From the sequence record NC_018835.1: 64,000 bases of DNA, one strand, 5' to 3'. Positions 401 through 23,794 of the stretch are shown one piece after another. Every line of letters begins with the position of its first letter. Within the stretch, counting starts at the first letter, position 1. Made by a program: the position numbers and the translations under genes. The DNA comes from Escherichia phage NJ01. The notes under the pieces are model-generated. The model did not search any database, had not been told where the DNA came from, and saw only the letters and a list, made by a program, of their open reading frames with translations.

Positions 401-1462
401 ATGGCTAATCCAACTTTATTTGTATCGTATGACCAGAATGGTAAAAAACTTTCTTTTGCTAACTGGATTTCTGTTCTGTCCCCTCAGGATACTCCGTTCG
501 TATCTATGACCGGTAAAGAGTCTATCAACCAGACTATCTTTAGCTGGCAGACCGATGCACTGGCAAGCGTTGATGGTAATAACGCACACGTCGAAGGTTC
601 TCGTGCTGAAGACGGCGAAATGAAACCGACTGTTATCAAGTCTAACGTTACTCAGATTCTGCGTAAGGTTGTTCGTGTTTCTGACACTGCTAACACCACC
701 GCTAACTACGGTCGTGGTCGTGAACTGATGTATCAGCTGGAGAAGAAAGGTAAAGAGATCAAGCGTGACCTCGAGAAAATCCTTCTGTCCGGTCAGGCTC
801 GTACCGACGTTCTGGCTGACCAGTATCTGACTAACTCCGCAGCTGATCCGACTCAGATTGGTAAGAACGACACCCATGCAGCTCGTAAGACTGGTGCATT
901 CCAGTTCCTGTGTGCTCACGGCGGTCTGACTGGTGGCGTTGTTGACAAAACCAAGAATGGTCCTGCTGACCCAGATACCGGTGCTGTAACTGTTAAAGTT
1001 GCACAGAACGCTTCTAACCCGGCTACTAACATCGGTTTTGATGAAGCAGATATCTTTGATATGACTCTGCAACTTTACACCGCTGGTTCTGAAGCAGATA
1101 TCATCATGATTAACCCGGCTCATGCTAAGATCTTCGCTGGTCTGCAAGAAAACACTCAGGGTTCACGTAAGCGTATCTTTGAGAACACCAAGCAGTTCAT
1201 CTACGAAGTTAACAGCATCACTGACCCGCTGGGCCAGAGCTACAAAATCATCGTTAACCGTTGGATGCCTACCGATGCAGTTTACTTCTTCCGTAGCGCT
1301 GACTGGACCCAGATGGTTCTGCGTGCTCCGAAACGTACCGAACTGGCAAAAGATGGTTCTTACGAAAAATGGATGATTGAGATGGAAGTTGGTCTGCGTC
1401 ACCGCAACCCGTATGCTTCCGGTGTTCTGTTCACTGCTGCGGGAAAGGCAGTGGCGGCGTAA
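401..1462 (+). CDS. major capsid protein (short form)
   Basis: 353 aa; SD TAGGAG upstream of ATG 401; first complete gene of late + strand operon; 3' end contains slippery heptamer leading into Ig-like frame. Confidence 0.6.
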   Translation: MANPTLFVSYDQNGKKLSFANWISVLSPQDTPFVSMTGKESINQTIFSWQTDALASVDGNNAHVEGSRAEDGEMKPTVIKSNVTQILRKVVRVSDTANTTANYGRGRELMYQLEKKGKEIKRDLEKILLSGQARTDVLADQYLTNSAADPTQIGKNDTHAARKTGAFQFLCAHGGLTGGVVDKTKNGPADPDTGAVTVKVAQNASNPATNIGFDEADIFDMTLQLYTAGSEADIIMINPAHAKIFAGLQENTQGSRKRIFENTKQFIYEVNSITDPLGQSYKIIVNRWMPTDAVYFFRSADWTQMVLRAPKRTELAKDGSYEKWMIEMEVGLRHRNPYASGVLFTAAGKAVAA

Positions 1463-1989
1463 CAGTAGATACCATAACTGTTAGTCCTTCGTCGGTTGCA
1501 AGCCTTCCGACGGGGGCTACTCAGCAGTTTACAGCTACAGCACAAATGAGTGATAGCTCCACATCAACAACTGGATTTGTTTGGTCCGTTGAGGGTGGTG
1601 GGGCTATTTCTGTTTCTGGACTGTACACTGCACCGAGTGCGTCGCAAGAAACCCCGATCACAGTGAAAGCTACTAAAGGTGGTAAATCCGGTACATCTAC
1701 AATCTCAGCTATTGCTGACCCTGAACCTACAATTGTAAGTCGTGGTCCTATTGCTGGTAAAGTCGGTGGTTCTACTACTGCCTTCTCTACAATGTTTACT
1801 GTAACCAATTCTGCTGGTAGTGATTATGATTTTGTTGTAACCCCTACTGAAGCAGGTACTGTCAGTGCAGCTGGTCTTTTGACTCTTGCTGATGCTGCTA
1901 CTGGTACAGTCTCTGTTGCAGCTACACACAAGACTAAACCTCTTGTAACAGCCACTTGTGAATTCACAGGTGTTACCCCCAAAGCCTAA
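401..1989 (+). CDS. predicted capsid long form: capsid fused to C-terminal BIG2 Ig-like domains via -1 frameshift at 1441-1447
   Basis: -1 frame encodes Ig-like sequence (VTVDTITVSPSSVASLPTGATQQFTATAQ...) that begins upstream of the first ATG at 1546. Confidence 0.5.
1441..1447 (+). promoter_or_regulatory. putative -1 programmed ribosomal frameshift site (slippery heptamer G_GGA_AAG)
   Basis: GGGAAAG in X_XXY_YYZ register relative to capsid frame, 4 codons before capsid stop; -1 frame open 1381..1989. Confidence 0.5.
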
Positions 1990-1995
1990 AACTAA

Positions 1996-2024
1996 AGCTG
2001 CCTTCGGGTGGCTTTTCTTGTTTT
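1996..2024 (+). terminator. intrinsic terminator-like hairpin (UUCG loop) plus T-run
   Basis: agctgcc-ttcg-ggtggct stem-loop followed by ttttcttgtttt. Confidence 0.55.
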
Positions 2025-2046
2025 AAGACCTATACAAGCTAGTGTG

Positions 2047-2088: not shown

Positions 2089-2841
2089 ATGGCGATGCCA
2101 GAAGTGCAAAACCCGATTAACACGTATGGCTGGCTTAAGAAAGCTGTTGCCTTGTGGGCCGATCGAGACGATGATGAATTTGTTAATCAAATTCCAAACT
2201 TTATTAACTTTGCAGAGAAAGAGATTTATCGTAACTTACGTATCCCTCCTCTGGAAAAAGAAGTGTATTTAGATATTAAAGATGGAGTAGCTTACATTCC
2301 TCCTGATTACTTAGAAGCTCAATGGATGATGAGAGCCAAAGATGGTACAATCTTCCAAGTAACATCTCCTGAAGAGATTAGCTATCGTAGACAGCATGGA
2401 ACAATTAACCCATCTCATTGGAATAACCAACCTGTTAACTTTGCTCGTTTCGGTAGTCGTTTCATTTTCTACCCTAGTATTGAAGCAGATACTCCTGTTT
2501 ATCCTGATGATGGAAGTCCTTTGATTCCAGCAGAAAACTCAGTAATTCTCAGTTATTATGCAGACCCACCGGAATTCCATGAAGATGCAGATACCAGTGC
2601 TATTCTTACTATTGCACCAGAACTTCTTCTGTATTTCACTCTACGTCACGCTTGCTTATTTGTTCAAGATGATAATGGAGTTCAGAAATGGTCTGCATTA
2701 GGAAAAGCTATCCTTGATGAAATGGTAGAACAGAATAAGAAACAAGAGTACTCAGGTTCACCTATCGCAATTCCGAATAACATGACTCGACTTCAGAGCA
2801 GCTTGCCTGACATTTATGGTATTCGTACTTCTCGTGTATAA
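2089..2841 (+). CDS. virion structural protein, function unknown
   Basis: 250 aa; SD AAGGAGG; between capsid and tail fiber genes. Confidence 0.5.
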   Translation: MAMPEVQNPINTYGWLKKAVALWADRDDDEFVNQIPNFINFAEKEIYRNLRIPPLEKEVYLDIKDGVAYIPPDYLEAQWMMRAKDGTIFQVTSPEEISYRRQHGTINPSHWNNQPVNFARFGSRFIFYPSIEADTPVYPDDGSPLIPAENSVILSYYADPPEFHEDADTSAILTIAPELLLYFTLRHACLFVQDDNGVQKWSALGKAILDEMVEQNKKQEYSGSPIAIPNNMTRLQSSLPDIYGIRTSRV

Positions 2842-2850
2842 GGAGATAAT

Positions 2851-5409
2851 ATGATCGTTTATAATAACCAAGCACCTGATGCAGTGAATAACGTTGGGCA
2901 GTTTGGTGCTACTGAAGGCTCTATCGGAGCTTACAAGCAAGCAGCAGAATACGCAGCTGACTCCAAATATTGGGCACTGCTAGCGGAATCTAAGTTTGGT
3001 ACAATTGATGACTTGATCGCTGAAGTAGAACGTCTGTATCAACAAGGTGTTCTGATGAAGCAGGATATTGAAGATCTTAAACAAGATTTTAAAGATCAAG
3101 ATGCTCGTCTTATGACCTTGATTGCCCAGACTAACGCAGCTGTTTCTGATGCGAATAACGCTGTTGCTTTAATCAATCAGAAACTTATTGAAGTCCAGAA
3201 TCAGCTTGACGTTCTGTTAGGAATGTCCGTTGATGTAACCACACTTCCTCCGGGAACTCCGGCTACTGGTTCTTTTAATCCTAACACTGGTGTAATCTCT
3301 CTAGGTATCCCAGAAGGCGAACCCGGAAAGGATGGTTCTGTTAAGGATTTAGACACAGCTCCTACTGGTGTTCCAGAGCTAGGTGATTTAGGTTTCTATG
3401 TTGACAAAGATGACAATACCGTCCACAAAACTACTCTAGATAACATTGCTAACTTAATCCCATCTGTTCGTTCTGTCTCTATTAACGGCGGTCCAGCTCT
3501 TGATGGAGAGGTTGCTCTAATACTTAACAAAGAGACGGTAGGTTTAGGAAATGTTCTGAACGTCGCTCAGTACAGTCGTCAAGAGATTAATGACAAATTT
3601 GACAAGACTACCAAGACATACCAATCAAAAGCAGAAGCTGATGCTGATGCTCAGTATCGTCAAGTAGGTGAGAAAGTTTTAGTTTGGGAAGCTACTAAGT
3701 ATGAATTCTATACTGTTGCTGCTAACAAAACACTGACTCCTGTTAAAACTGAAGGTAGAATTCTTACCGTTAACTCTCGCTCTCCAGACTCAAGCGGTAA
3801 TATCGATATCACGATTCCAACAGGTAACCCGTCTTTGTATCTTGGTGAAATGGTAATGTTCCCTTACGACCCATCTAAGAATATCTCCTACCCAGGAGTT
3901 CTTCCTGCTGATGGTCGTCTGGTATCAAAAGAATCTGCTCTCGACTTAGGCCCATCTCTTGTCAGTGGTCAGCTTCCTGTAGTCTCTGAAACTGAATGGC
4001 AAGCAGGGTCTAAACAATATTTCTCATGGGGTAAGCTAGCAGATGGGATTACTGATGCGGATTCTACTAATTTCATCAATATTCGACTTCCTGATTGGAC
4101 TGGAGGGGAGGCAATAAGAGCACCAGATTCTGATAAAGATTCTCAATACAATGGGTCTGTACAGGCTCAGAAACCTTATGTTGTCACGGTAAATAACCAA
4201 GCTCCTGATGAGATTACAGGGAACGTAACCCTCTCCAGATCTATCTTGGGAGCAGCTTCTTCTGGTGCAAACTCTGATATAACATCCCTGACAGGACTCA
4301 CTACAGCTCTCTCTATCGCTCAAGGTGGTACAGGAGGGAAAACTCCATCTGAAGCTAGGGCAAACCTAAATCTTGAAAGATTTCAACAAGACAACTCGCA
4401 GACTTTGATATATTCTCCTGATTATGCCCGTCGTGTTTATGTTGACAACACTGGTGGTTCTTGGGGGTGCCAGAACGTAACAGATGGCGGTTTTATTGCT
4501 CTTGGTATTCCTCAAGGGGGTACAGGGGCTAAGGATGCTGCTGGTGCACGAAGTAATCTCGGTTTGGGTTCAGTGTCCACACTAAACAATATACCCGTAG
4601 CTAATGGAGGTACTGGAGCAACTACTGCTGCTGGTGCTCGTTCCAACTTAGGTCTTGGGAGTGTTTCTACTCTGGATAATGTACCTATTGCTAATGGTGG
4701 GACAGGGGCAGCTGATGCTGCTGGTGCAAGGTTTAATATTGGAGCACTAAGCAGCACCCCAGCAAATACAGGTGTTGGTGGTACTGGTAATCGCGTCCAA
4801 CATGCATCCGGGAATGGCCTGTTTACTTTAGACATGTTTAACTGCTACTGGTATATGCAGCCAGAGGATACTAACTTCTGGGTTGCCCACAGTGTATCAT
4901 ATGCAGGATCTGGTGGCGAAGCCTCTGGATACGGTCGTATAACTTACGCAATAAAGATTGCAGATGGAACAACAAAATATGTCCATTGTCTTACAAACAA
5001 AAATACTATTACCGATGTAAGCGGTTTTATCAAAGCGGCATCTCCGGTAGTTAATATTTACGCCAACGGTCGATATGAGACGAACGATGAATCTGAGGGG
5101 GTCAATGTCATTCGGCAAGGTGTCGGTGAGTATTTGATTACCGGTTGCCTCGGCTTAAACGCAGATGCAAAATGGGGAGGTATCGACGGCGGCTTTGAAA
5201 TCCCTATTGACCGCAACAAACAGCCTAGGGTTTGGCTTGATTATGAGGTTAAAGAAGATGGTTCTATTTTAGTCAAGACCTATCACAGAACCCATTCAAC
5301 ATCCCCAGTTTTTGCTAGAAACGAGTTGGAAGGTTTTTCTGACGGTGACCCAATCGATATCCCTGCTGATGCTTTCATATCAGTTCGTGTTGAAATGCCT
5401 TCTAAATGA
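2851..5409 (+). CDS. tail fiber protein with tandem fiber repeats
   Basis: 852 aa; three ~30-aa repeats (GGTGA..AAGAR.NLGLGSVSTL.N.P.ANGGTGA); SD AAGGAG. Confidence 0.7.
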   Translation: MIVYNNQAPDAVNNVGQFGATEGSIGAYKQAAEYAADSKYWALLAESKFGTIDDLIAEVERLYQQGVLMKQDIEDLKQDFKDQDARLMTLIAQTNAAVSDANNAVALINQKLIEVQNQLDVLLGMSVDVTTLPPGTPATGSFNPNTGVISLGIPEGEPGKDGSVKDLDTAPTGVPELGDLGFYVDKDDNTVHKTTLDNIANLIPSVRSVSINGGPALDGEVALILNKETVGLGNVLNVAQYSRQEINDKFDKTTKTYQSKAEADADAQYRQVGEKVLVWEATKYEFYTVAANKTLTPVKTEGRILTVNSRSPDSSGNIDITIPTGNPSLYLGEMVMFPYDPSKNISYPGVLPADGRLVSKESALDLGPSLVSGQLPVVSETEWQAGSKQYFSWGKLADGITDADSTNFINIRLPDWTGGEAIRAPDSDKDSQYNGSVQAQKPYVVTVNNQAPDEITGNVTLSRSILGAASSGANSDITSLTGLTTALSIAQGGTGGKTPSEARANLNLERFQQDNSQTLIYSPDYARRVYVDNTGGSWGCQNVTDGGFIALGIPQGGTGAKDAAGARSNLGLGSVSTLNNIPVANGGTGATTAAGARSNLGLGSVSTLDNVPIANGGTGAADAAGARFNIGALSSTPANTGVGGTGNRVQHASGNGLFTLDMFNCYWYMQPEDTNFWVAHSVSYAGSGGEASGYGRITYAIKIADGTTKYVHCLTNKNTITDVSGFIKAASPVVNIYANGRYETNDESEGVNVIRQGVGEYLITGCLGLNADAKWGGIDGGFEIPIDRNKQPRVWLDYEVKEDGSILVKTYHRTHSTSPVFARNELEGFSDGDPIDIPADAFISVRVEMPSK

Positions 5410-5418
5410 AACAAGAAT

Positions 5419-5434
5419 GCTCCCTTCGGGGAGC
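5419..5434 (+). other. intercistronic GC-rich hairpin with UUCG tetraloop
   Basis: gctccc-ttcg-gggagc perfect stem; short T-run only. Confidence 0.4.
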
Positions 5435-5449
5435 TTTAAGGAGAAATAA

Positions 5450-7627
5450 ATGTCTAGAGAATTAATGCCCAAATCTGGTATAATGATGCCTCATGTAGTA
5501 GTAACCAGAGATGCGGCTGTTGTTGGTGTTTCTACGGTAGATGGTCAGGCAGGAGCTGTGAATCTGACTGATAAATATTTACAGAAAACTGACGCAGCTG
5601 CTACATACCAGACTAAAGTGGAAGGAGCATCTAAAGATTTTGTACTGGATTCGATTCAACCTATTATGTCTGGTGCTTTATTCAGAGCAGACCCTTGGGT
5701 TGTTAACGACACCCCTCTCCGTTCTACCGGAGCTAACGGTGTAGAGTCAGTGGATATGATGAAGGTTACTCCTGATAACTCAATTAAGATTGGCAGTTAT
5801 GCTTCTTCTGTTCAAGGAGTAGAGATTCATTCTGCTGGTCGTCTTCAAGTAGTAGACCAGAACGACTCTGGTGTAGAAACTAAATATCCAGTATATTCTA
5901 AACGCTATCGTCCTGAGATTGAGGATCTGCCTTTCGCTGCAATTGGTTCTTATGTCAAAGATTCAAAGGGCCGTACTATTGGTGTAAACCGTACCGGTAT
6001 CAACTCTGATATCAAACAACTCACCCAAAAGGTCACTTTTACCCAACCTGTTACTGTAGCAGATGCTGTAGGCGATTATGATGCAGTGACACTGAGACAG
6101 CTTCGTAATAGTGGTGGTGGTTCTGGTGGTCCTACTATGAGTGGTATCTCCAACTTTGGTATTGGTGATTTCCATCTTCGTGATAGTCGTGCTTTCATCC
6201 CTGCATTCGAAGTTGTATCAGATGGTCAGCTACTGAATCGTGCTGATTACCCTGATCTTTGGGCTTATGCCCAGTTGTTAACCCCTATCACAGATGCTGC
6301 TTGGTTGGCTGATGCACAGCAACGAGGTAAATATTCAACTGGTGATGGTTCTACTACCTTCCGTGTTCCTGATAGGAATGGTGTTCAGAGTGGCTCTCTG
6401 AAAGAACTCTTTGCTCGTGGTGATGGTGGTAATAGTAGTAATAATGGAATGGCTTATGATGCGGCACTTCCTAACATCGTAGGTTACACTGCCCACACTC
6501 TTTTAACTGCTGCGAGTAATCAAGGACAGGTTGCTACCGATGGAGCTTTTACCTCTACAACCTCAACCTCAGGTGTTTGGCCTTTGTCTGGCGGTGGCGG
6601 TCTTTATACCAACATTCAGCTTAACGCTAACAACAGTGATGCTACTTATGGTCGCTACGGAATCACAGCGAATGCTATCCCTCGTAACTTCATTGGTGTT
6701 TGGACTATCCGTGCTCATGGTGGTTTTGTAGCAGCTAACACTTCTTGGTCTGTTATTAACAGTGATGCTTCAGAACAACCTTCAGGTACTCCTATTACTG
6801 GTGGATTGGTTTCTTCTAAGTATGTAGTTGGAGGTGTGGATAAGTATCGGTCTTCTATCCAGTTGATAGGGTCTAATGAAGTTGATTTATCAACTAGAAT
6901 TACGACTATAAATGATAGATATTCCATCGGGGCTGCAACTTGGGATTTTAAGTTAGATGGTAAACTTGTTTTTAATAAAAGTTTAAATCCTACCGGAACA
7001 GGATACTCCCCTGCTAACACCTACGTAACTCTTGCTAATACTTGGCTGACTTCTCCCTATAGTGGATACGTTGGTTTTGTTGGTGGCGGTGTTGGAGTTT
7101 CTAACGGAGGTTGGAGAAACTTCATCTCTTTAGGGTCTTTGATTTTCCCTGATTCAGCCCACCCTACTGCTATTATCTCTCAAGTGTATGATTACGATAT
7201 GGCGACCGGGAACCAGCCTAATGGGGACATTGTTCGGAATACATCGTTCAATGCTGAGAGCTATGATATCACTTTCGGGAACAACAGTGGGACTACTAAT
7301 TACATCTTCAGTAAATCTCCAGTCTCTGACGAGCGTCTAAAACATAGCATCAAAGAGGAGGGGACAGCCACAGCTCTTTCTAACCTAAACAAGATGGAGT
7401 ATAAAACCTTTATCTATAATTATGATGAGAAAGCAACTGTAAGGCGTGGATTTATTGCCCAGCAACTTGAAGCTATTGACCCTCAATATGTTAGGAAGTA
7501 TAAAACCTTCAAAGGTACTGATACTCTAGCTTTAGATGAGAATGTGTTGCTTTTAGATGCAATTGCTGCTATCCAAGAGCTTTCTAAAAAGGTTGAGGCT
7601 TTAGAAGCAAAACTAGCAGAGAAGTAA
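5450..7627 (+). CDS. tail fiber/tailspike with C-terminal intramolecular chaperone (peptidase S74-like) domain
   Basis: 725 aa; C-terminus SDERLKHSIKEE...IAQQLEAIDPQYV resembles self-cleaving chaperone domains of phage fibers. Confidence 0.7.
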   Translation: MSRELMPKSGIMMPHVVVTRDAAVVGVSTVDGQAGAVNLTDKYLQKTDAAATYQTKVEGASKDFVLDSIQPIMSGALFRADPWVVNDTPLRSTGANGVESVDMMKVTPDNSIKIGSYASSVQGVEIHSAGRLQVVDQNDSGVETKYPVYSKRYRPEIEDLPFAAIGSYVKDSKGRTIGVNRTGINSDIKQLTQKVTFTQPVTVADAVGDYDAVTLRQLRNSGGGSGGPTMSGISNFGIGDFHLRDSRAFIPAFEVVSDGQLLNRADYPDLWAYAQLLTPITDAAWLADAQQRGKYSTGDGSTTFRVPDRNGVQSGSLKELFARGDGGNSSNNGMAYDAALPNIVGYTAHTLLTAASNQGQVATDGAFTSTTSTSGVWPLSGGGGLYTNIQLNANNSDATYGRYGITANAIPRNFIGVWTIRAHGGFVAANTSWSVINSDASEQPSGTPITGGLVSSKYVVGGVDKYRSSIQLIGSNEVDLSTRITTINDRYSIGAATWDFKLDGKLVFNKSLNPTGTGYSPANTYVTLANTWLTSPYSGYVGFVGGGVGVSNGGWRNFISLGSLIFPDSAHPTAIISQVYDYDMATGNQPNGDIVRNTSFNAESYDITFGNNSGTTNYIFSKSPVSDERLKHSIKEEGTATALSNLNKMEYKTFIYNYDEKATVRRGFIAQQLEAIDPQYVRKYKTFKGTDTLALDENVLLLDAIAAIQELSKKVEALEAKLAEK

Positions 7628-12200: not shown

Positions 12201-12301
12201 ACCATCCATACCTTTTCTATAATGTTATAGATAATGATGTTAACAGTAATGCTGCTATCAATGGGTTAACGATAGAGTTTGCTGTTGGCGGACGGAGATA
12301 A
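9284..12301 (+). CDS. large virion structural protein with tandem Ig-like (BIG2) domains
   Basis: 1005 aa; at least three BIG2-like segments (residues ~110-370); SD AAGGAGG. Confidence 0.65.
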   Translation: MALYPIKSLGAVGVIADQAPTDLAPNAFTNAINARFVEQRVFKTGGNAPLSYVDEDKDLTPLSFVSMPFDYYSAGNSFLVVGTDKKLYKLTDESLTDISRKVATVTKKASASIKIYPVVSQIVPKESTISMNFNQTKNLEVSLLPADANNTDLVWEVSNSSYGSITVDPSDSKLATLTSFEREGNLVVTISTADDSVVAQIAVNIIDGDSGIFLSQDTVTIRKGGTTTLTAVTGKTPVTWSSSNASIVSVTPNANSLTAVITANGEGNVTITADNGTKTASCEVVSIPQIDSITLSQSDVIVSRGSQYILTATLSPANAPNQNITWTSSNPNIATVSGTSTQGTVNALLAGFTEITATTEEGNRVAVCTVRVDLAGRAMRTSAMAFAAPASEPIESQEEEVVTPPESEEMVYFAEPTSGIDTSGMYEGNSFYDYSNVNDIEGFARASLFATPLSSVTLDVVSASLDVGEEIVITATASPEGDYSYQWSVDKTGYVSTTSVTGKSIKLVALRKGEINVTCTVSQMTQKDYDAFDDYPWYHAVISNCAVATTHYETPQVKEFESEYFVDLPGWGEQTVVDNDGNPSVKKFNWKCERVRSFNNRLFALNMREANASGVTTNYPLRLRWSNFANENKAPTLWDDFAYDRVVSSDLASNIVGQTQALENGYAGYIDLADSNGSLIDILPLKDYLFVYTEFETYIGSPTNNTYQPLMFKKLFNDSGILAPECVVEVEGSHFVVTQNDVILHNGATKKSIASNRVKNMLINEVCLVNPLATRVHLHQDKKEVWVLYVGPGEPKESFACTKAAVWNYEFDTWSFRTIPYAQCIGLVDPPVLERGPIWSDFQEITWDDPSIKELVWRKDATNFRQRVTIVGSFLRGFYQVDVGALDYFYDRLNDVVIEKPLEMRLERTGLDFDNVTNEWNQKHINRFRPQTTGSGTYTFEAGGSQFSNEYGHPHTSKTYTIGVDRHVSVRLNHPYLFYNVIDNDVNSNAAINGLTIEFAVGGRR

Positions 12302-12307
12302 CAACAA

Positions 12308-12334
12308 GGGGCTTCGTGCCCCTTTTATTGTTTT
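12308..12334 (+). terminator. intrinsic terminator
   Basis: ggggc-ttcgt-gcccc hairpin followed by ttttattgtttt. Confidence 0.6.
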
Positions 12335-12344
12335 GGAGGAACTT

Positions 12345-13313
12345 ATGGGTGCAGGTGGTTTTCGTAAGAACACTGGTCGTAATAACACCACACTCCCGTA
12401 CAACGTTGGGTTTCTCAATAATGTACAGGACACAGAAACATATAACGTAGCCGTATATGACGAGCTACAGAAAGTCAGTACAGCTACTAACCAAATGTTC
12501 CAAGCTATTGATGAGATTCACGATGAGATTGATGTTCGTATCAAAGCTCTTCATGCGATGAATCTACAATTTGATGAGCTTGAGAACAGAATTACCACAG
12601 AGATTGAAACAGCTATCGCAGATATTATAACACAGATGGGGAATCTCTCCACTGAAGATATTTGGGATAATTCTGTTCAACCTCCTGTAAAATTAGAAAG
12701 CACTGTATCTGGCTTTAAGACAAGTATTGAAGGTAACACAACTAAGATTCAAACGGTAGAAGGGATTGTTAACGACCAAGGTCAAGAGATTGCTTTAGTT
12801 CAGACAGAGATTCAAAATATCAATGGAAGCCTCTCTCAGTATATGAAGCTTTCTGAGTATGAAGCTACTTGGGGTGTTAACTCTACGGTCAACGGAAGAT
12901 ACGCTGGGGTCAAGTTAACTAACAACGGAACAAACAGTCAATTCCAAGTAACAGCTAACAAGTTTATTGTTGGTGATGGCAGCTCTGGTAATACCCCTTT
13001 TGTATTTGAAGGCGGAAGAGCTAGGATGGAATTCGCTGACATAAAGAACGTCAACATCACAACAGCTCAGATTGCCAACGCTAGAATTCAATGGGCACAG
13101 ATTGATAACGTATCTATCTCCAATGCTCAAATTCAGAACTTATCAGCGGATAAAATCACTGCTGGTTCTATGTGGGGTTCTAACTGGAGACTTACTGTTG
13201 GGGGTGACTTTGTTATGGGTGGCACAGGTGGTTCTCAGTTGTGGATGAATGGTAATAGAATAGATTTTTATGATGGGAGTGGAACTCTTCGCATAAGAAT
13301 AGGGAGTTGGTAA
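12345..13313 (+). CDS. virion structural protein (coiled-coil N-terminal region), function unknown
   Basis: ATG 12345 with GGAGG SD preferred over overlapping TTG 12279; 322 aa. Confidence 0.55.
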   Translation: MGAGGFRKNTGRNNTTLPYNVGFLNNVQDTETYNVAVYDELQKVSTATNQMFQAIDEIHDEIDVRIKALHAMNLQFDELENRITTEIETAIADIITQMGNLSTEDIWDNSVQPPVKLESTVSGFKTSIEGNTTKIQTVEGIVNDQGQEIALVQTEIQNINGSLSQYMKLSEYEATWGVNSTVNGRYAGVKLTNNGTNSQFQVTANKFIVGDGSSGNTPFVFEGGRARMEFADIKNVNITTAQIANARIQWAQIDNVSISNAQIQNLSADKITAGSMWGSNWRLTVGGDFVMGGTGGSQLWMNGNRIDFYDGSGTLRIRIGSW

Positions 13314-13314
13314 T

Positions 13315-14349
13315 ATGGCGTATGGAATATGGACAAGACCGGTCGGTCCGGGGCCAGCAGCACCTGCTGATATTTACATTGACAGTGGTAGCACATTCCC
13401 TCAGTTAAGAAACAGGGTCAGTGGTAATTTTTCTTTTAATGGTAACACATGTGATCTACCTATAAGCGGTTGGGATGGAAGTGGTCAGATAGTTGTAGTC
13501 CCAACAGGGTCTGTTGTTTGGGAGAGATACATACCTCCTAATGTAACATCTGATGTGTATTGGCTAACGGATATATCTGTTATTAATAACTCAACCTTCA
13601 GAGTTACTATGGATTATAATGTAAACGGTTGGGTATTTGATATGGCTTTTAATGTATATCAAATATGGCCTAGAGCTAACAGGAACTATGGAATCACATT
13701 CTCCAACTCTGCTGACTATTTCTCAATCTCTGATTCTGGAGTTGTTGGTCAATGTATTTGGGCTTGGGAGGGTGACATAAATGGTGCTCTTCAAATACCA
13801 GATATTGGTGGTTTTGATATGAGCCGAGCAACTGTCTACGCGAATTGGAGTAACGGCGGAGCAGGTCTGCTATACAACCCATCCAATAGGGTTGTTTATG
13901 TGTACCAGAACAGGTCTCATGATAATGGTAACACAAACCAAACAGGGTACATTGGTGGTGTTAGGATTGCCGTCTTCTGTGATGGTTCGGGAGTACCAAC
14001 CCACAATGGAGGTTTAAATATCTTTTCTCCAAATGGGTCTCAGTGTGTTTTTTCTACATATAGAACCCCTTTTAGTGTTGAGGGGTTTATGCCTATGAGT
14101 GGTGGTAACACATCTTTGGCCTATCCAATGATACCTCTATCTTATGGTGCTGGAGCAATAAGAGGTAAGGCTAGTGGTTGGTATTTTCAACACACAAGAT
14201 CTCACATGATGAATGGCTCTTCTTTTGGTACAGGTTTCGGAAGGATGATTTACTCTTGGAGTAGTCAATATGATTTAGGAGGGGGTGGTGCCCTCGGGTT
14301 AAGTATTCCAATATTAGATGCTAGAAAGATATTCAGGAGTATACAATAA
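13315..14349 (+). CDS. virion structural protein, function unknown
   Basis: 344 aa; start overlaps upstream stop (TAATATG). Confidence 0.5.
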   Translation: MAYGIWTRPVGPGPAAPADIYIDSGSTFPQLRNRVSGNFSFNGNTCDLPISGWDGSGQIVVVPTGSVVWERYIPPNVTSDVYWLTDISVINNSTFRVTMDYNVNGWVFDMAFNVYQIWPRANRNYGITFSNSADYFSISDSGVVGQCIWAWEGDINGALQIPDIGGFDMSRATVYANWSNGGAGLLYNPSNRVVYVYQNRSHDNGNTNQTGYIGGVRIAVFCDGSGVPTHNGGLNIFSPNGSQCVFSTYRTPFSVEGFMPMSGGNTSLAYPMIPLSYGAGAIRGKASGWYFQHTRSHMMNGSSFGTGFGRMIYSWSSQYDLGGGGALGLSIPILDARKIFRSIQ

Positions 14350-23345: not shown

Positions 23346-23354
23346 TAAAAGAAA

Positions 23355-23390
23355 AGCCCCAACCGAAAGGAAGGGGCTTTATTTATTTCT
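23355..23390. terminator. bidirectional terminator at convergence of + and - transcription units
   Basis: agcccc...ggggct hairpin flanked by T-runs on both strands. Confidence 0.6.
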
Positions 23391-23794
23391 AGATTTTCTT
23401 GTAAGTGATAGTTCCTTCTTTAACAGCTTTATCATAAGCCGCTTTGAACTTTTTCATCATATCAATTTTGCTCTGTTTTATCTTTTCAAAAACCATCAAA
23501 TTCGTCATACATCCCAATTCTCTTCAGAAGTCTGGATGTTCATCTTCAAAGCATCCTGAGATGCCTCCGTAGAACCAATCTGATTTACTGCCAAGAATAA
23601 CAACTCCTTCATTCATACACCCTCCTAGATTGTGTTTATAAAATTAGTAAGTTTCTCTTCGCTTTCATCAAAAGCTTTTCCAGCTGCTTCCATCTCCCAA
23701 GTTTCGGCATTGTCAATAAAGCTCTGAGCTTCTAATAGATCGTGGATTAAGTCGAAGAGTTTATTTTTATCTGCTTGTGTGATCATGTCAGTTC

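Follow-up and report, generated by a model that had tools for sequence, protein, structure and literature searches.

The capsid locus of Escherichia phage NJ01 raises the question of how a long reading frame that encodes immunoglobulin (Ig)-like domains, and that overlaps the end of the major capsid gene in the -1 frame, comes to be translated. This locus was analysed within a window of 64,000 nucleotides, the whole stretch of DNA under study, to which all positions refer. Very probably, a programmed -1 slip of the ribosome at the heptamer G_GGA_AAG makes a minor 529-aa capsid protein with two Ig-like domains. The frameshift observation is correct but not new, because the signal has been described for this phage group since 2008.

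The capsid gene and its slippery heptamer

401..1462, plus strand: major capsid protein gene in the 0 frame (ORF, 353 aa, 38.8 kDa)
1441..1447, plus strand: slippery heptamer G_GGA_AAG, the proposed -1 frameshift site, in register with the capsid frame
1460..1468, plus strand: 0-frame stops, TAA at 1460-1462, then CAG, then TAG at 1466-1468, so that the 0 frame reads stop, Q, stop after the capsid protein

The 353-aa capsid protein matches the Pfam family SU10_MCP (E 6.9e-77), and it aligns with the solved structure of the SU10 major head protein (PDB 7z45) over that protein's full 352 residues (E 1e-232). Its gene ends ...GCG GGA AAG GCA GTG GCG GCG TAA, with GGA at 1442 and AAG at 1445, which places GGGAAAG at 1441-1447 in the register of the capsid frame, as the initial annotation had read it. 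That annotation spoke of a textbook slippery site. The heptamer is the same as that of lambda G/GT, and G_GGA_AAG is described as highly shift-prone in E. coli (PMC5009743, PMC3296357). The signal exceeds chance because it is the only in-register X_XXY_YYZ motif in the capsid gene, because this gene alone among the window's 36 ORFs of 150 aa or more carries such a motif within its last 30 codons, and because the heptamer is invariant in all 31 Kuravirus-like loci compared (31/31), which comprise 20 distinct junction sequences.

The open stretch of the -1 frame runs from 1381 to 1989 and contains its first ATG at 1546, both as originally reported, and no further slip site was found in the overlap at 1381-1462. 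Read-through of the capsid stop codon was considered as the source of the Ig domains and excluded, because the second 0-frame stop, TAG 1466-1468, lies two codons past the TAA; moreover, these domains are encoded in the other frame. Transcriptional slippage was likewise rejected, as homopolymer runs of at least five nucleotides are absent from the overlap.

The extension and its Ig-like domains

1447..1989, plus strand: -1 frame extension, 180 codons plus TAA (1987-1989), with a GSGG linker followed by two Ig-like domains
About 1465-1704, plus strand: Ig-like domain 1 (Big_2), extension residues about 7-86
About 1729-1977, plus strand: Ig-like domain 2, extension residues about 95-177
1546..1548, plus strand: ATG at which gene callers begin a free-standing 'Ig domain protein' of 147 aa; as a start codon it is probably not genuine
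1994..2025, plus strand: intrinsic terminator after the extension, with a 9-bp stem at 1994-2015, a TTCG loop and a T-rich tail

Both domains had initially been assigned to the BIG2 type. Pfam confirms this for the first only, with a Big_2 match to extension residues 7-79 (E 1.7e-6), while a Pfam search with the second domain alone gave no match; the second is Ig-like as judged by its predicted structure. The AlphaFold2 model of the extension (pLDDT 96.1) consists of two beta-sandwiches, and in Foldseek its best solved match is the tandem Big_2 pair of LigA (8gyr, E 3e-11). Foldseek also matches the extension to phi29 gp8 and to the 894-aa major capsid protein (MCP) of phage Paul, which is the top viral fold match. 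The phi29 gp8 match is found by sequence (6qvk, E 0.0017) as well as by fold (8f2n, 33% identity), and PHROG 13745, 'Ig domain containing protein', also matches the extension.

Domain 1 begins at extension residue 7, 27 codons upstream of ATG 1546, and this ATG encodes Met34 of the extension, which in the model lies past three beta-strands of the domain. The Pfam match and the predicted fold thus bear out the earlier statement that the Ig-like sequence starts ahead of the first ATG. Across the extension, pN/pS ranges from 0.26 to 0.45, indicating purifying selection in the -1 frame. Between the window and phiEco32, the 33 codons before the ATG differ at 5, 4 and 16 sites in the first, second and third codon positions (pN/pS about 0.28); in the -1 frame this stretch evolves like a coding region.

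A capsid-Ig fusion had been predicted, with a size of about 528 aa that becomes 529 aa (56.0 kDa) on recounting. Its junction reads ...FTAAGK-GSGGVTV. The junction peptide TAAGK-GSGGVTV, put forward earlier for detection in virions, is right in sequence, but trypsin cuts it at the junction Lys. Cleavage after this residue gives a 73-residue fusion-specific peptide; a junction-spanning peptide would be, for example, TAAGKGSGGVTV(D...).

The terminator that follows the Ig frame is present as well, although at 1994-2025 rather than 1996-2024; its stem at 1994-2015 is followed by TCTTGTTTT. A terminator is annotated at the corresponding place in the SU10, Paul and 4E8 records. As a side observation, hundreds of phage records from Klebsiella (221), Enterobacter, Citrobacter, Cronobacter and related hosts match the window through two segments of 33-43 nt. 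These short multi-genus matches are trivial, because the first segment is a terminator hairpin.

Conservation among related phages

Comparison with the capsid genes of related phages, which the initial annotation had suggested as a check, shows that the arrangement is conserved in Kuravirus-like loci and in Proteus phage P59. Among the Kuravirus-like loci, the -1 extensions run from 178 to 545 codons and the long open frame is kept in 30 of 31; SU10 is the sole truncated case, in which a 1-nt insertion creates a premature TAG in the -1 frame. Indels directly past the heptamer come in multiples of three, so that both frames are kept. The window itself comes from a Kuravirus (phiEco32-like). One of these indels, a 3-nt GCA insertion, is common to the window and phage 172-1, its nearest relative (99.8% nucleotide identity over the capsid-Ig region). 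The distance from heptamer to capsid stop is 13 nt in the window and 10-13 nt in Kuraviruses. The gene order scaffold, MCP, Ig ORF, terminator and adaptor is likewise present in the window, as in Kuraviruses. In type, the first Ig domain of the window resembles that of Paul and Bas86 and not that of phiEco32 (pS 0.07 vs 0.55).

In P59, whose capsid protein is 57% identical, the sequence reads G_GGA_AAG_TAA, and the -1 frame beyond it encodes I-set and Big_2 domains. Distant relatives otherwise reach the same architecture with a weak heptamer and a proximal hairpin, or with a duplicated in-frame paralogue. In Aeromonas-type relatives the hairpin lies exactly 6 nt downstream of the slip site. 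Salmonella phages have natural in-frame SU10_MCP-Big_2 fusions, and in 7-11-like Salmonella phages a second capsid paralogue, 74% identical, supplies the long form. Elsewhere in the window, the adjacent 344-aa ORFs at 12279-14349 were considered as possible paralogues and rejected, as the two are not paralogous.

RNA structure around the slip site

1427..1465, plus strand: possible stem-loop whose apical loop holds the heptamer, arms CUGUUCACUGCUGC / GGCGGCGUAACAG, RNAalifold consensus
1474..1532, plus strand: conserved hairpin inside the extension coding sequence, inner helix 1482-1495 with 1507-1519 (dG -24.6 kcal/mol, z -4.05)
1549..1611, plus strand: another stable hairpin, 3 nt downstream of ATG 1546 (dG -30.3 kcal/mol, z -5.1)

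Structure prediction downstream of 1447, another check proposed at the outset, yielded a conserved hairpin at 1474-1532 but none at the canonical spacing of 5-9 nt. The latter held for this clade in single-sequence folding and in RNAalifold with and without the upstream arm, and folding downstream of the heptamer gave only scattered, unconvincing outer pairs at +6 to +16. Frameshift efficiency may be low because of this lack of a stimulatory structure at canonical spacing. On a plain reading of the sequence, no SD-like element is evident upstream of the heptamer, and an Rfam search of the window matched only a tRNA. The stem-loop at 1427-1465 shows no covariation in the RNAalifold alignment, where every paired column is invariant or changed on one side. 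A similar but shorter stem-loop enclosing the heptamer was proposed for SU10 (PMC4281155). Such a structure presumably could not form while a ribosome occupies the slip site.

The hairpin at 1474-1532 begins about 26 nt past the slip site. Over 20 distinct sequences, 98.5% of its cells are paired, compared with at most 52% for slid partners, and it occurs as four complementary, co-varying haplotypes. Its third-codon positions are constrained in the stem and vary freely in the loop (Fisher p=0.044). The hairpin at 1549-1611 is conserved in part; across 17 relatives, one of its pairs co-varies. No other local structure of the extension is as strong as these two in the window, phiEco32, Paul or Bas86. 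One speculative reading, which is rather unlikely, is that the first hairpin, perhaps with the second, acts as a non-canonical long-range modulator of frameshifting or of capsid-gene termination, a role likened to that of the distal element in T7 gene 10, which is itself unexplained. On the same tentative footing, prolate C3-podophages might more broadly have three interchangeable routes to a minor Ig-bearing capsid isoform: one would use a strong heptamer and no structure close by, another would pair the weak heptamer G_GUA_AAG with a proximal hairpin, and in the third the capsid gene would be duplicated and extended in frame.

Proposed mechanism and products

In the proposed mechanism, most ribosomes on the capsid gene would stop at TAA 1460-1462 and release the 353-aa capsid protein, while a small fraction would slip back one base at 1441-1447. 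In the slip, the P-site tRNA-Gly would re-pair from GGA to GGG and the A-site tRNA-Lys from AAG to AAA. The slipped ribosomes would then read the -1 frame up to TAA 1987-1989, giving a 529-aa capsid protein whose C-terminus carries two tandem Ig-like domains behind a short Gly/Ser linker. This protein would co-assemble as a minor capsid species. Since lambda G/GT shifts at about 4% efficiency with the same GGGAAAG heptamer (PMC3296357), a few tens of the roughly 715 capsid subunits may be of the long form.

By analogy with relatives, this phage is likely to produce both proteins and to carry both in its virions. Mass spectrometry of SU10 found capsid forms of 38.5 and 55.4 kDa (PMC4281155), and Proteus phage Privateer shows two capsid bands on SDS-PAGE, with the long form detected in virions by mass spectrometry (PMC7881722). 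Two products are also attributed to phiEco32, as cited in PMC4281155 and PMC7881722 and in the phage Paul record. In other work on SU10, the cryo-EM map lacks Ig density and SDS-PAGE lacks a long-form band (PMC9509320, PMC9965538). However, SU10 is unique in its truncated -1 frame, and flexible domains on a few percent of subunits would be averaged out anyway. To judge by the viability of SU10, the long form may not be essential, at least under laboratory conditions.

Alternative explanations

The Ig frame might instead be a free-standing gene read from ATG 1546, whose product (147 aa, 14.4 kDa) would attach to the capsid non-covalently as a decoration protein. It is annotated in this way by gene callers and in several GenBank records (172-1, NJ01, XT18, PE006), and the authors of the SU10 cryo-EM study regarded gp10 as possibly a minor capsid protein in its own right (PMC9509320). 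The codon itself speaks against such a role and makes this very improbable: it has no Shine-Dalgarno sequence (anti-SD duplex +1.2 kcal/mol, compared with -6.5 to -11.4 kcal/mol for real neighbouring genes of the window), it is replaced by AAA (Lys) in the phiEco32, SU7 and ECBP2 clades, and it is wedged between hairpins of -24.6 and -30.3 kcal/mol. A product started there would come without the three N-terminal beta-strands of domain 1, and the 33 codons ahead of it are under purifying selection in the -1 frame. The missing Shine-Dalgarno sequence, the AAA in relatives and the constraint before the ATG support the initial claim that the frame cannot be expressed independently from this position. 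Re-initiation after the capsid TAA, in which translational coupling would release a free Ig protein from a start near the stop, draws on a -1 frame GTG about 9-12 nt past the capsid stop in the phiEco32-type clade, which serves as the start in the phiEco32, SU7 and ShigP1 records. Yet the codon at this annotated start of phiEco32 gp12 is ATA in the window and GTA in Paul, Bas86, ECBP2 and L038, and the -1 frame of the window has no ATG, GTG or TTG between 1381 and 1546. The heptamer is the sole signal conserved across all clades, and coupling of this kind is extremely unlikely.

A further view treats heptamer and open -1 frame as relics of past evolution, with slippage that is negligible or a product without function. 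SU10, which has lost the extension through its premature TAG (PMC9965538) and is nevertheless viable, with neither Ig density nor a long band (PMC9509320), lends this view some plausibility. Against it stand the long open frame kept in all loci but one, the purifying selection over the extension, its modular character with growth to 545 codons in some phages, the same architecture obtained by other routes in distant relatives, and the long form in Privateer virions (PMC7881722). Taken together, these points leave the relic view with hardly any credibility, and programmed slippage at the heptamer is the reading followed below.

Relation to known systems

Programmed slippage places the window beside phiEco32 gp11/gp12, SU10 gp9/gp10 and the long MCPs of Paul and YF01 (Kuravirus / Gordonclarkvirinae), which share the SU10_MCP family, GGGAAAG, a Big_2 extension in the -1 frame, the terminator and the gene order. 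The extension of Paul has 545 codons, whereas that of the window has two Ig domains. Privateer and P59 (Grimontviridae) have the same capsid family (57% identity), heptamer and -1 Ig extension, but their heptamer abuts the stop (G_GGA_AAG_TAA), and the types (I-set and Big_2) and order of their Ig domains differ from those of the window.

The T7 10A/10B system and T3 gene 10 likewise use a -1 shift near the end of the major capsid gene to make a minor C-terminally extended protein, at about 10% for frameshifts of this type as cited in PMC9965538. The extension of T3 gene 10 is Ig-like (PMC5009743), while that of T7, unlike the window's, is not. In T7 gene 10, X_XX is G_GU and an unexplained element more than 200 nt downstream is required (PMC5009743). 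The window heptamer is not of the G_GUU_UUC type, its capsid protein belongs to SU10_MCP, and no T7-type record appears among the capsid matches listed; T7 10A/10B is analogous in mechanism, and the window system is not a member of it.

Lambda G/GT has the identical heptamer with a 0-frame stop just downstream, as in the window. It is not known to require a stimulatory structure. Lambda GT is a tail assembly chaperone absent from the virion, whereas the window product is a predicted structural capsid isoform. Phi29 gp8 and the long paralogue of Salmonella 7-11-like phages are also HK97-fold capsid proteins with a covalent C-terminal Big_2 domain, but in frame and without recoding. In phi29 this domain is on every capsid subunit, while in the window it is predicted on a minority only.

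Annotation and significance

Capsid frameshifting has been published for phiEco32 (2008, as cited), SU10 (2014, PMC4281155), Privateer (2021, PMC7881722) and "YF01 and other group phages" (2023, PMC9965538), and the present results leave current understanding unchanged. The main value for the window is in annotation. The 172-1, NJ01, PE006, XT18 and many other GenBank records present the one recoded gene as two, encoding a 'major head protein' and a truncated 'Ig domain containing protein'; a joined CDS, as annotated for the long MCP in the RefSeq record of phage Paul, should replace these split genes.

The series from frameshift through weak heptamer with hairpin to duplicated paralogue is a tidy natural experiment on the capsid isoform ratio. 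The long form would put Ig-like domains on the capsid surface, where they probably bind weakly to carbohydrates of cell surfaces or the environment, or decorate the capsid. A role in weak adherence to carbohydrates or mucus has been proposed for domains of this kind, which is relevant because Kuraviruses are under development for phage therapy.

Capsid gene and slip site

The window opens among the late, structural genes of a tailed phage, where the major capsid gene and the features around it are arranged as follows.

401-1462, + strand: major capsid ORF, 353 aa, 3' end GCG GGA AAG GCA GTG GCG GCG TAA
1381-1989, + strand: -1 open frame, in which the earliest ATG/GTG/TTG is the ATG at 1546
1441-1447, + strand: slippery heptamer GGGAAAG, read G_GGA_AAG in the capsid frame
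1474-1532, + strand: conserved hairpin in the first-Ig-domain coding sequence, -24.6 kcal/mol, z -4.05
1549-1611, + strand: second stable hairpin in the same coding sequence, -30.3 kcal/mol, z -5.1
1994-2015, + strand: terminator-like hairpin with TTCG loop and T-rich tail, 3' of the extension
59231-59305, - strand: tRNA-Arg, anticodon TCT, the sole Rfam match in the window

The capsid ORF belongs to Pfam SU10_MCP (E 6.9e-77), and it aligns over the full 352 residues of the SU10 major head protein (PDB 7z45, E 1e-232). The initial annotation proposed that a -1 frameshift near its end fuses the capsid protein to Ig-like domains, and such a fusion is very probably made. The heptamer lies in the proposed G_GGA_AAG register, the X_XXY_YYZ phase required by tandem -1 slippage, and the extent of the -1 frame and its first ATG are as first described. 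This is the only in-register X_XXY_YYZ motif in the capsid gene, and among the 36 window ORFs of at least 150 aa no other gene carries one within its last 30 codons; beyond it the -1 frame stays open for 175 further codons. The slip product comprises 529 aa (56.0 kDa), one residue more than the approximately 528 first given, with the junction ...FTAAGK/GSGGVTVDTITV...; the tryptic junction peptide suggested as evidence would be unobservable, since the lysine at the junction is itself a trypsin cleavage site. A terminator hairpin does follow the extension, with bounds slightly different from those first assigned. The tRNA-Arg reads neither slip-site codon.

Phage relationships and earlier descriptions

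By its sequence the phage is a Kuravirus. Identity to Escherichia phage 172-1 is 99.8% over 380-2090 and 97.2% over 1-24000; the structural module is 97-99.8% identical to 172-1, while over 40001-64000 the best identity to any phage record searched is only 94-96% (MN05, PE006), so that the phage is a mosaic relative and distinct from 172-1. Elsewhere, two segments of 33-43 nt (23347-23389 and 23490-23526) are 93-100% identical to hundreds of phage records, mostly T4-like phages of Klebsiella, Enterobacter, Citrobacter and Cronobacter; the former is a bidirectional terminator hairpin (AAAAGCCCC...GGGGCTTT) where convergent gene modules join.

The capsid-Ig frameshift is already known for the Kuravirus group. 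In the SU10 genome paper, slippage at GGGAAAG was described "as in phage phiEco32", with forms of 38.5 and 55.4 kDa reported from mass spectrometry (MS) (PMC4281155). The Privateer paper reported the same signal, together with two bands on SDS-PAGE and detection by MS; it also stated that the frameshifted product had been observed in phiEco32 and SU10 (PMC7881722). According to the YF01 paper, the capsid protein of "YF01 and other group phages" occurs in two forms through GGGAAAG slippage, SU10 being the sole group member without the long form (PMC9965538). In RefSeq, phage Paul has a joined CDS annotated [quoted passage not shown]. More broadly, C-terminal Ig-like extensions added to phage capsid and tail proteins by frameshifting are recognised as a class (PMC5009743, which cites Fraser et al. 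2006).

Other routes to the Ig domains

Neither stop read-through nor transcriptional slippage is an alternative route to the Ig domains, since a second 0-frame stop (TAG) lies two codons past the capsid TAA and the frame overlap contains no homopolymer run of at least 5. Translation of a free-standing Ig ORF from the ATG at 1546 would yield a 147-aa protein, which is 100% identical to a phage NJ01 entry; four lines of evidence speak against it, in agreement with the initial annotation. This Met is extension residue 34, whereas the Big_2 match begins at residue 7, so the Ig-like sequence starts 5' of the ATG; as three beta-strands of domain 1 (7-13, 25-27, 29-34) would be left out, the product would be a truncated domain. 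For the 20 nt 5' of the ATG the anti-SD duplex energy is +1.2 kcal/mol, compared with -6.5 to -11.4 kcal/mol for the window's capsid, adaptor and two fibre genes. The ATG is also not conserved: the phiEco32, SU7 and ECBP2 clades have AAA (Lys) at its position; where phiEco32 gp12 has its annotated GTG start, the window has ATA and Paul, Bas86 and ECBP2 have GTA; and no start codon for the Ig ORF is common to all clades. Finally, the ATG is flanked by the stable hairpins at 1474-1532 and 1549-1611.

Fold of the extension

The BIG2 identity first assigned to the 180-residue extension is borne out by Pfam (Big_2, residues 7-79, E 1.7e-6), and PHROGs labels it "Ig domain containing protein". A very confident AlphaFold2 model with 31 homologues as input (mean pLDDT 96.1) contains two beta-sandwich domains, at residues ~7-86 and ~95-177. 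Among solved structures, the Big_2 domains in tandem in Leptospira LigA match best (8gyr, E 3e-11), and the phi29 capsid protein has a BIG2 domain that resembles the extension in sequence and fold. Among viral models, phage Paul supplies the top match with its 894-aa "Major capsid protein", itself a deposited frameshift fusion; a 585-aa major head protein from Salmonella phage 7-11 is another match. On the two-domain model and the fold matches both halves are Ig-like, of which Pfam recognises only the first.

Conservation among Kuravirus-like phages

Comparison with related capsid genes, as initially suggested, covered 31 loci that resemble Kuravirus or Suseptimavirus, taken from GenBank, IMG/VR and metagenomes, with 20 distinct junction sequences. 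GGGAAAG is kept in 31/31, either 10 or 13 nt 5' of the capsid stop, and 30/31 have a -1 frame running 178-545 codons. Indels right after the heptamer are multiples of three throughout, so both overlapping frames are preserved. Over the 33 codons from slip site to ATG, differences between the window and phiEco32 at codon positions 1/2/3 number 5/4/16 (pN/pS 0.28); over the entire extension pN/pS is 0.34-0.45 against eight relatives. The extension measures 178, 179, 180, 217, 264, 372, 437, 443, 457, 459 or 545 codons, which argues that Ig modules are gained and lost 3' of a fixed junction; the loci listed with varied lengths are L015, L018, L027-L029, L038 and L042-L044. The window capsid is nearest the phiEco32 type (pS 0.12), but its first Ig domain is of the Paul/Bas86 type (pS 0.07 vs 0.55), which indicates a recombination breakpoint close to the slip site. 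An HNH endonuclease gene lies between the extension terminator and the adaptor gene in Bas86 (L018 6024-6536) and XT18 (L040 2012-2313); the window has no such insertion.

The one locus of the 31 without a long -1 frame is SU10 (L002, 2562-2603), where a 1-nt insertion (GTCTAC vs GT-GAC) brings a TAG 11 codons past the slip, a truncation likewise recorded in the YF01 paper (PMC9965538). The 55.4-kDa SU10 fusion found by MS in 2014 is at odds with the deposited SU10 sequence, a conflict pointed out in the same paper (PMC9965538); it reflects either a sequencing error in the record or differing stocks.

Slippage mechanism and the distal hairpin

As is established for X_XXA_AAG sites, both tRNAs would be able to re-pair fully in the -1 frame here, Gly GGA to GGG and Lys AAG to AAA. 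G_GGA_AAG is rated highly shift-prone in E. coli (PMC5009743), and the identical heptamer in lambda G/GT, with a 0-frame stop just 3', yields ~4% (PMC3296357). No consensus RNA structure was found in the Kuravirus clade at the canonical spacing of 5-9 nt past the heptamer, which leaves the heptamer alone as the only demonstrable signal. The SU10-type head contains 715 capsid proteins (PMC9509320); slippage of a few percent would place a few tens of long subunits in each, presumably too few and too flexible for symmetrised cryo-EM maps.

RNA structure downstream of 1447, which the initial annotation put forward for prediction, was instead found farther away, in the conserved hairpin at 1474-1532. 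Its base lies 26 nt beyond the heptamer, a gap too great for a canonical stimulator, and ~12 nt beyond the 0-frame stop, where the mRNA enters a ribosome that is terminating. In the window, phiEco32, Paul (526 windows) and Bas86, the extension has no stronger local structures than this hairpin and the one at 1549-1611. In 20 distinct sequences, 98.5% of the cells of the 1474-1532 hairpin are paired, against 92.8 +/- 0.9 in shuffles and at most 52% for partners slid out of register, and the inner helix is 100% paired. The haplotypes GUCGG/CCGAC, GUCUU/GAGAC, GUCUG/CAGAC and GUCAG/CUGAC, all complementary, alter the encoded residue (P/E/Q/L) yet keep pairing, although this covariation comprises only about four independent haplotypes and scores no better than one slid control. 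Third-codon positions are variable in the loops (6/6) and just 3' of the hairpin (9/9), whereas in the stems 7/13 are invariant and 4/13 vary solely in pair-preserving ways (Fisher p=0.044). It may be a modulator that acts at long range, an element for mRNA stability or processing, or a suppressor of internal initiation.

Distant relatives

In Proteus phage P59, whose capsid protein is 57% identical, the site is G_GGA_AAG_TAA, and the -1 frame then encodes I-set and Big_2 domains. Aeromonas-type contigs and Serratia phage KSP100 also encode Ig domains in the -1 frame; they have no X_XXY_YYZ motif and carry the weaker G_GTA_AAG or A_GTA_AAG just 5' of the capsid stop. Sites and loci in these more distant relatives are:

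L009-L011, ~4412-4480: G_GTA_AAG / A_GTA_AAG site
L012 and L022, ~4412: the same type of site
L024, ~3286: the same type of site
L020 (pSal-SNUABM-01), 2482-5294: two tandem capsid paralogues, the second with an in-frame extension (597 aa)
L023 (PKM.Hi.22.6), 3501-6856: two tandem capsid paralogues, the second with an in-frame extension (778 aa)

The P-site variant G_GU is known, for example from T7 gene 10 (PMC5009743), and in three Aeromonas-type contigs (L009-L011) a GC-rich hairpin begins exactly 6 nt past the heptamer, the canonical stimulator spacing. These sites are probably unannotated frameshifts; the KSP100 -1 ORF is annotated "major tail subunit". In IMG/VR contig L014 (~4421-4555; related capsid, 55% identity), A_AAA_AAG stands 4 nt 5' of the capsid stop and the -1 frame is open for merely 41 further codons, which may represent either a short or a degraded extension.

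Two Salmonella phages have tandem capsid paralogues, which in pSal-SNUABM-01 share 74% identity across the capsid core. In each phage the second copy has an in-frame, Big_2-containing extension; here the long isoform arises by gene duplication instead of frameshifting. The covalent capsid-Ig architecture thus appears, from these comparisons, to have been reached by three routes within the SU10_MCP family, which supports the fusion, rather than a free Ig protein, as the selected product. At this known frameshift locus the annotation should be corrected, as records of the 172-1/NJ01 type split one recoded gene.
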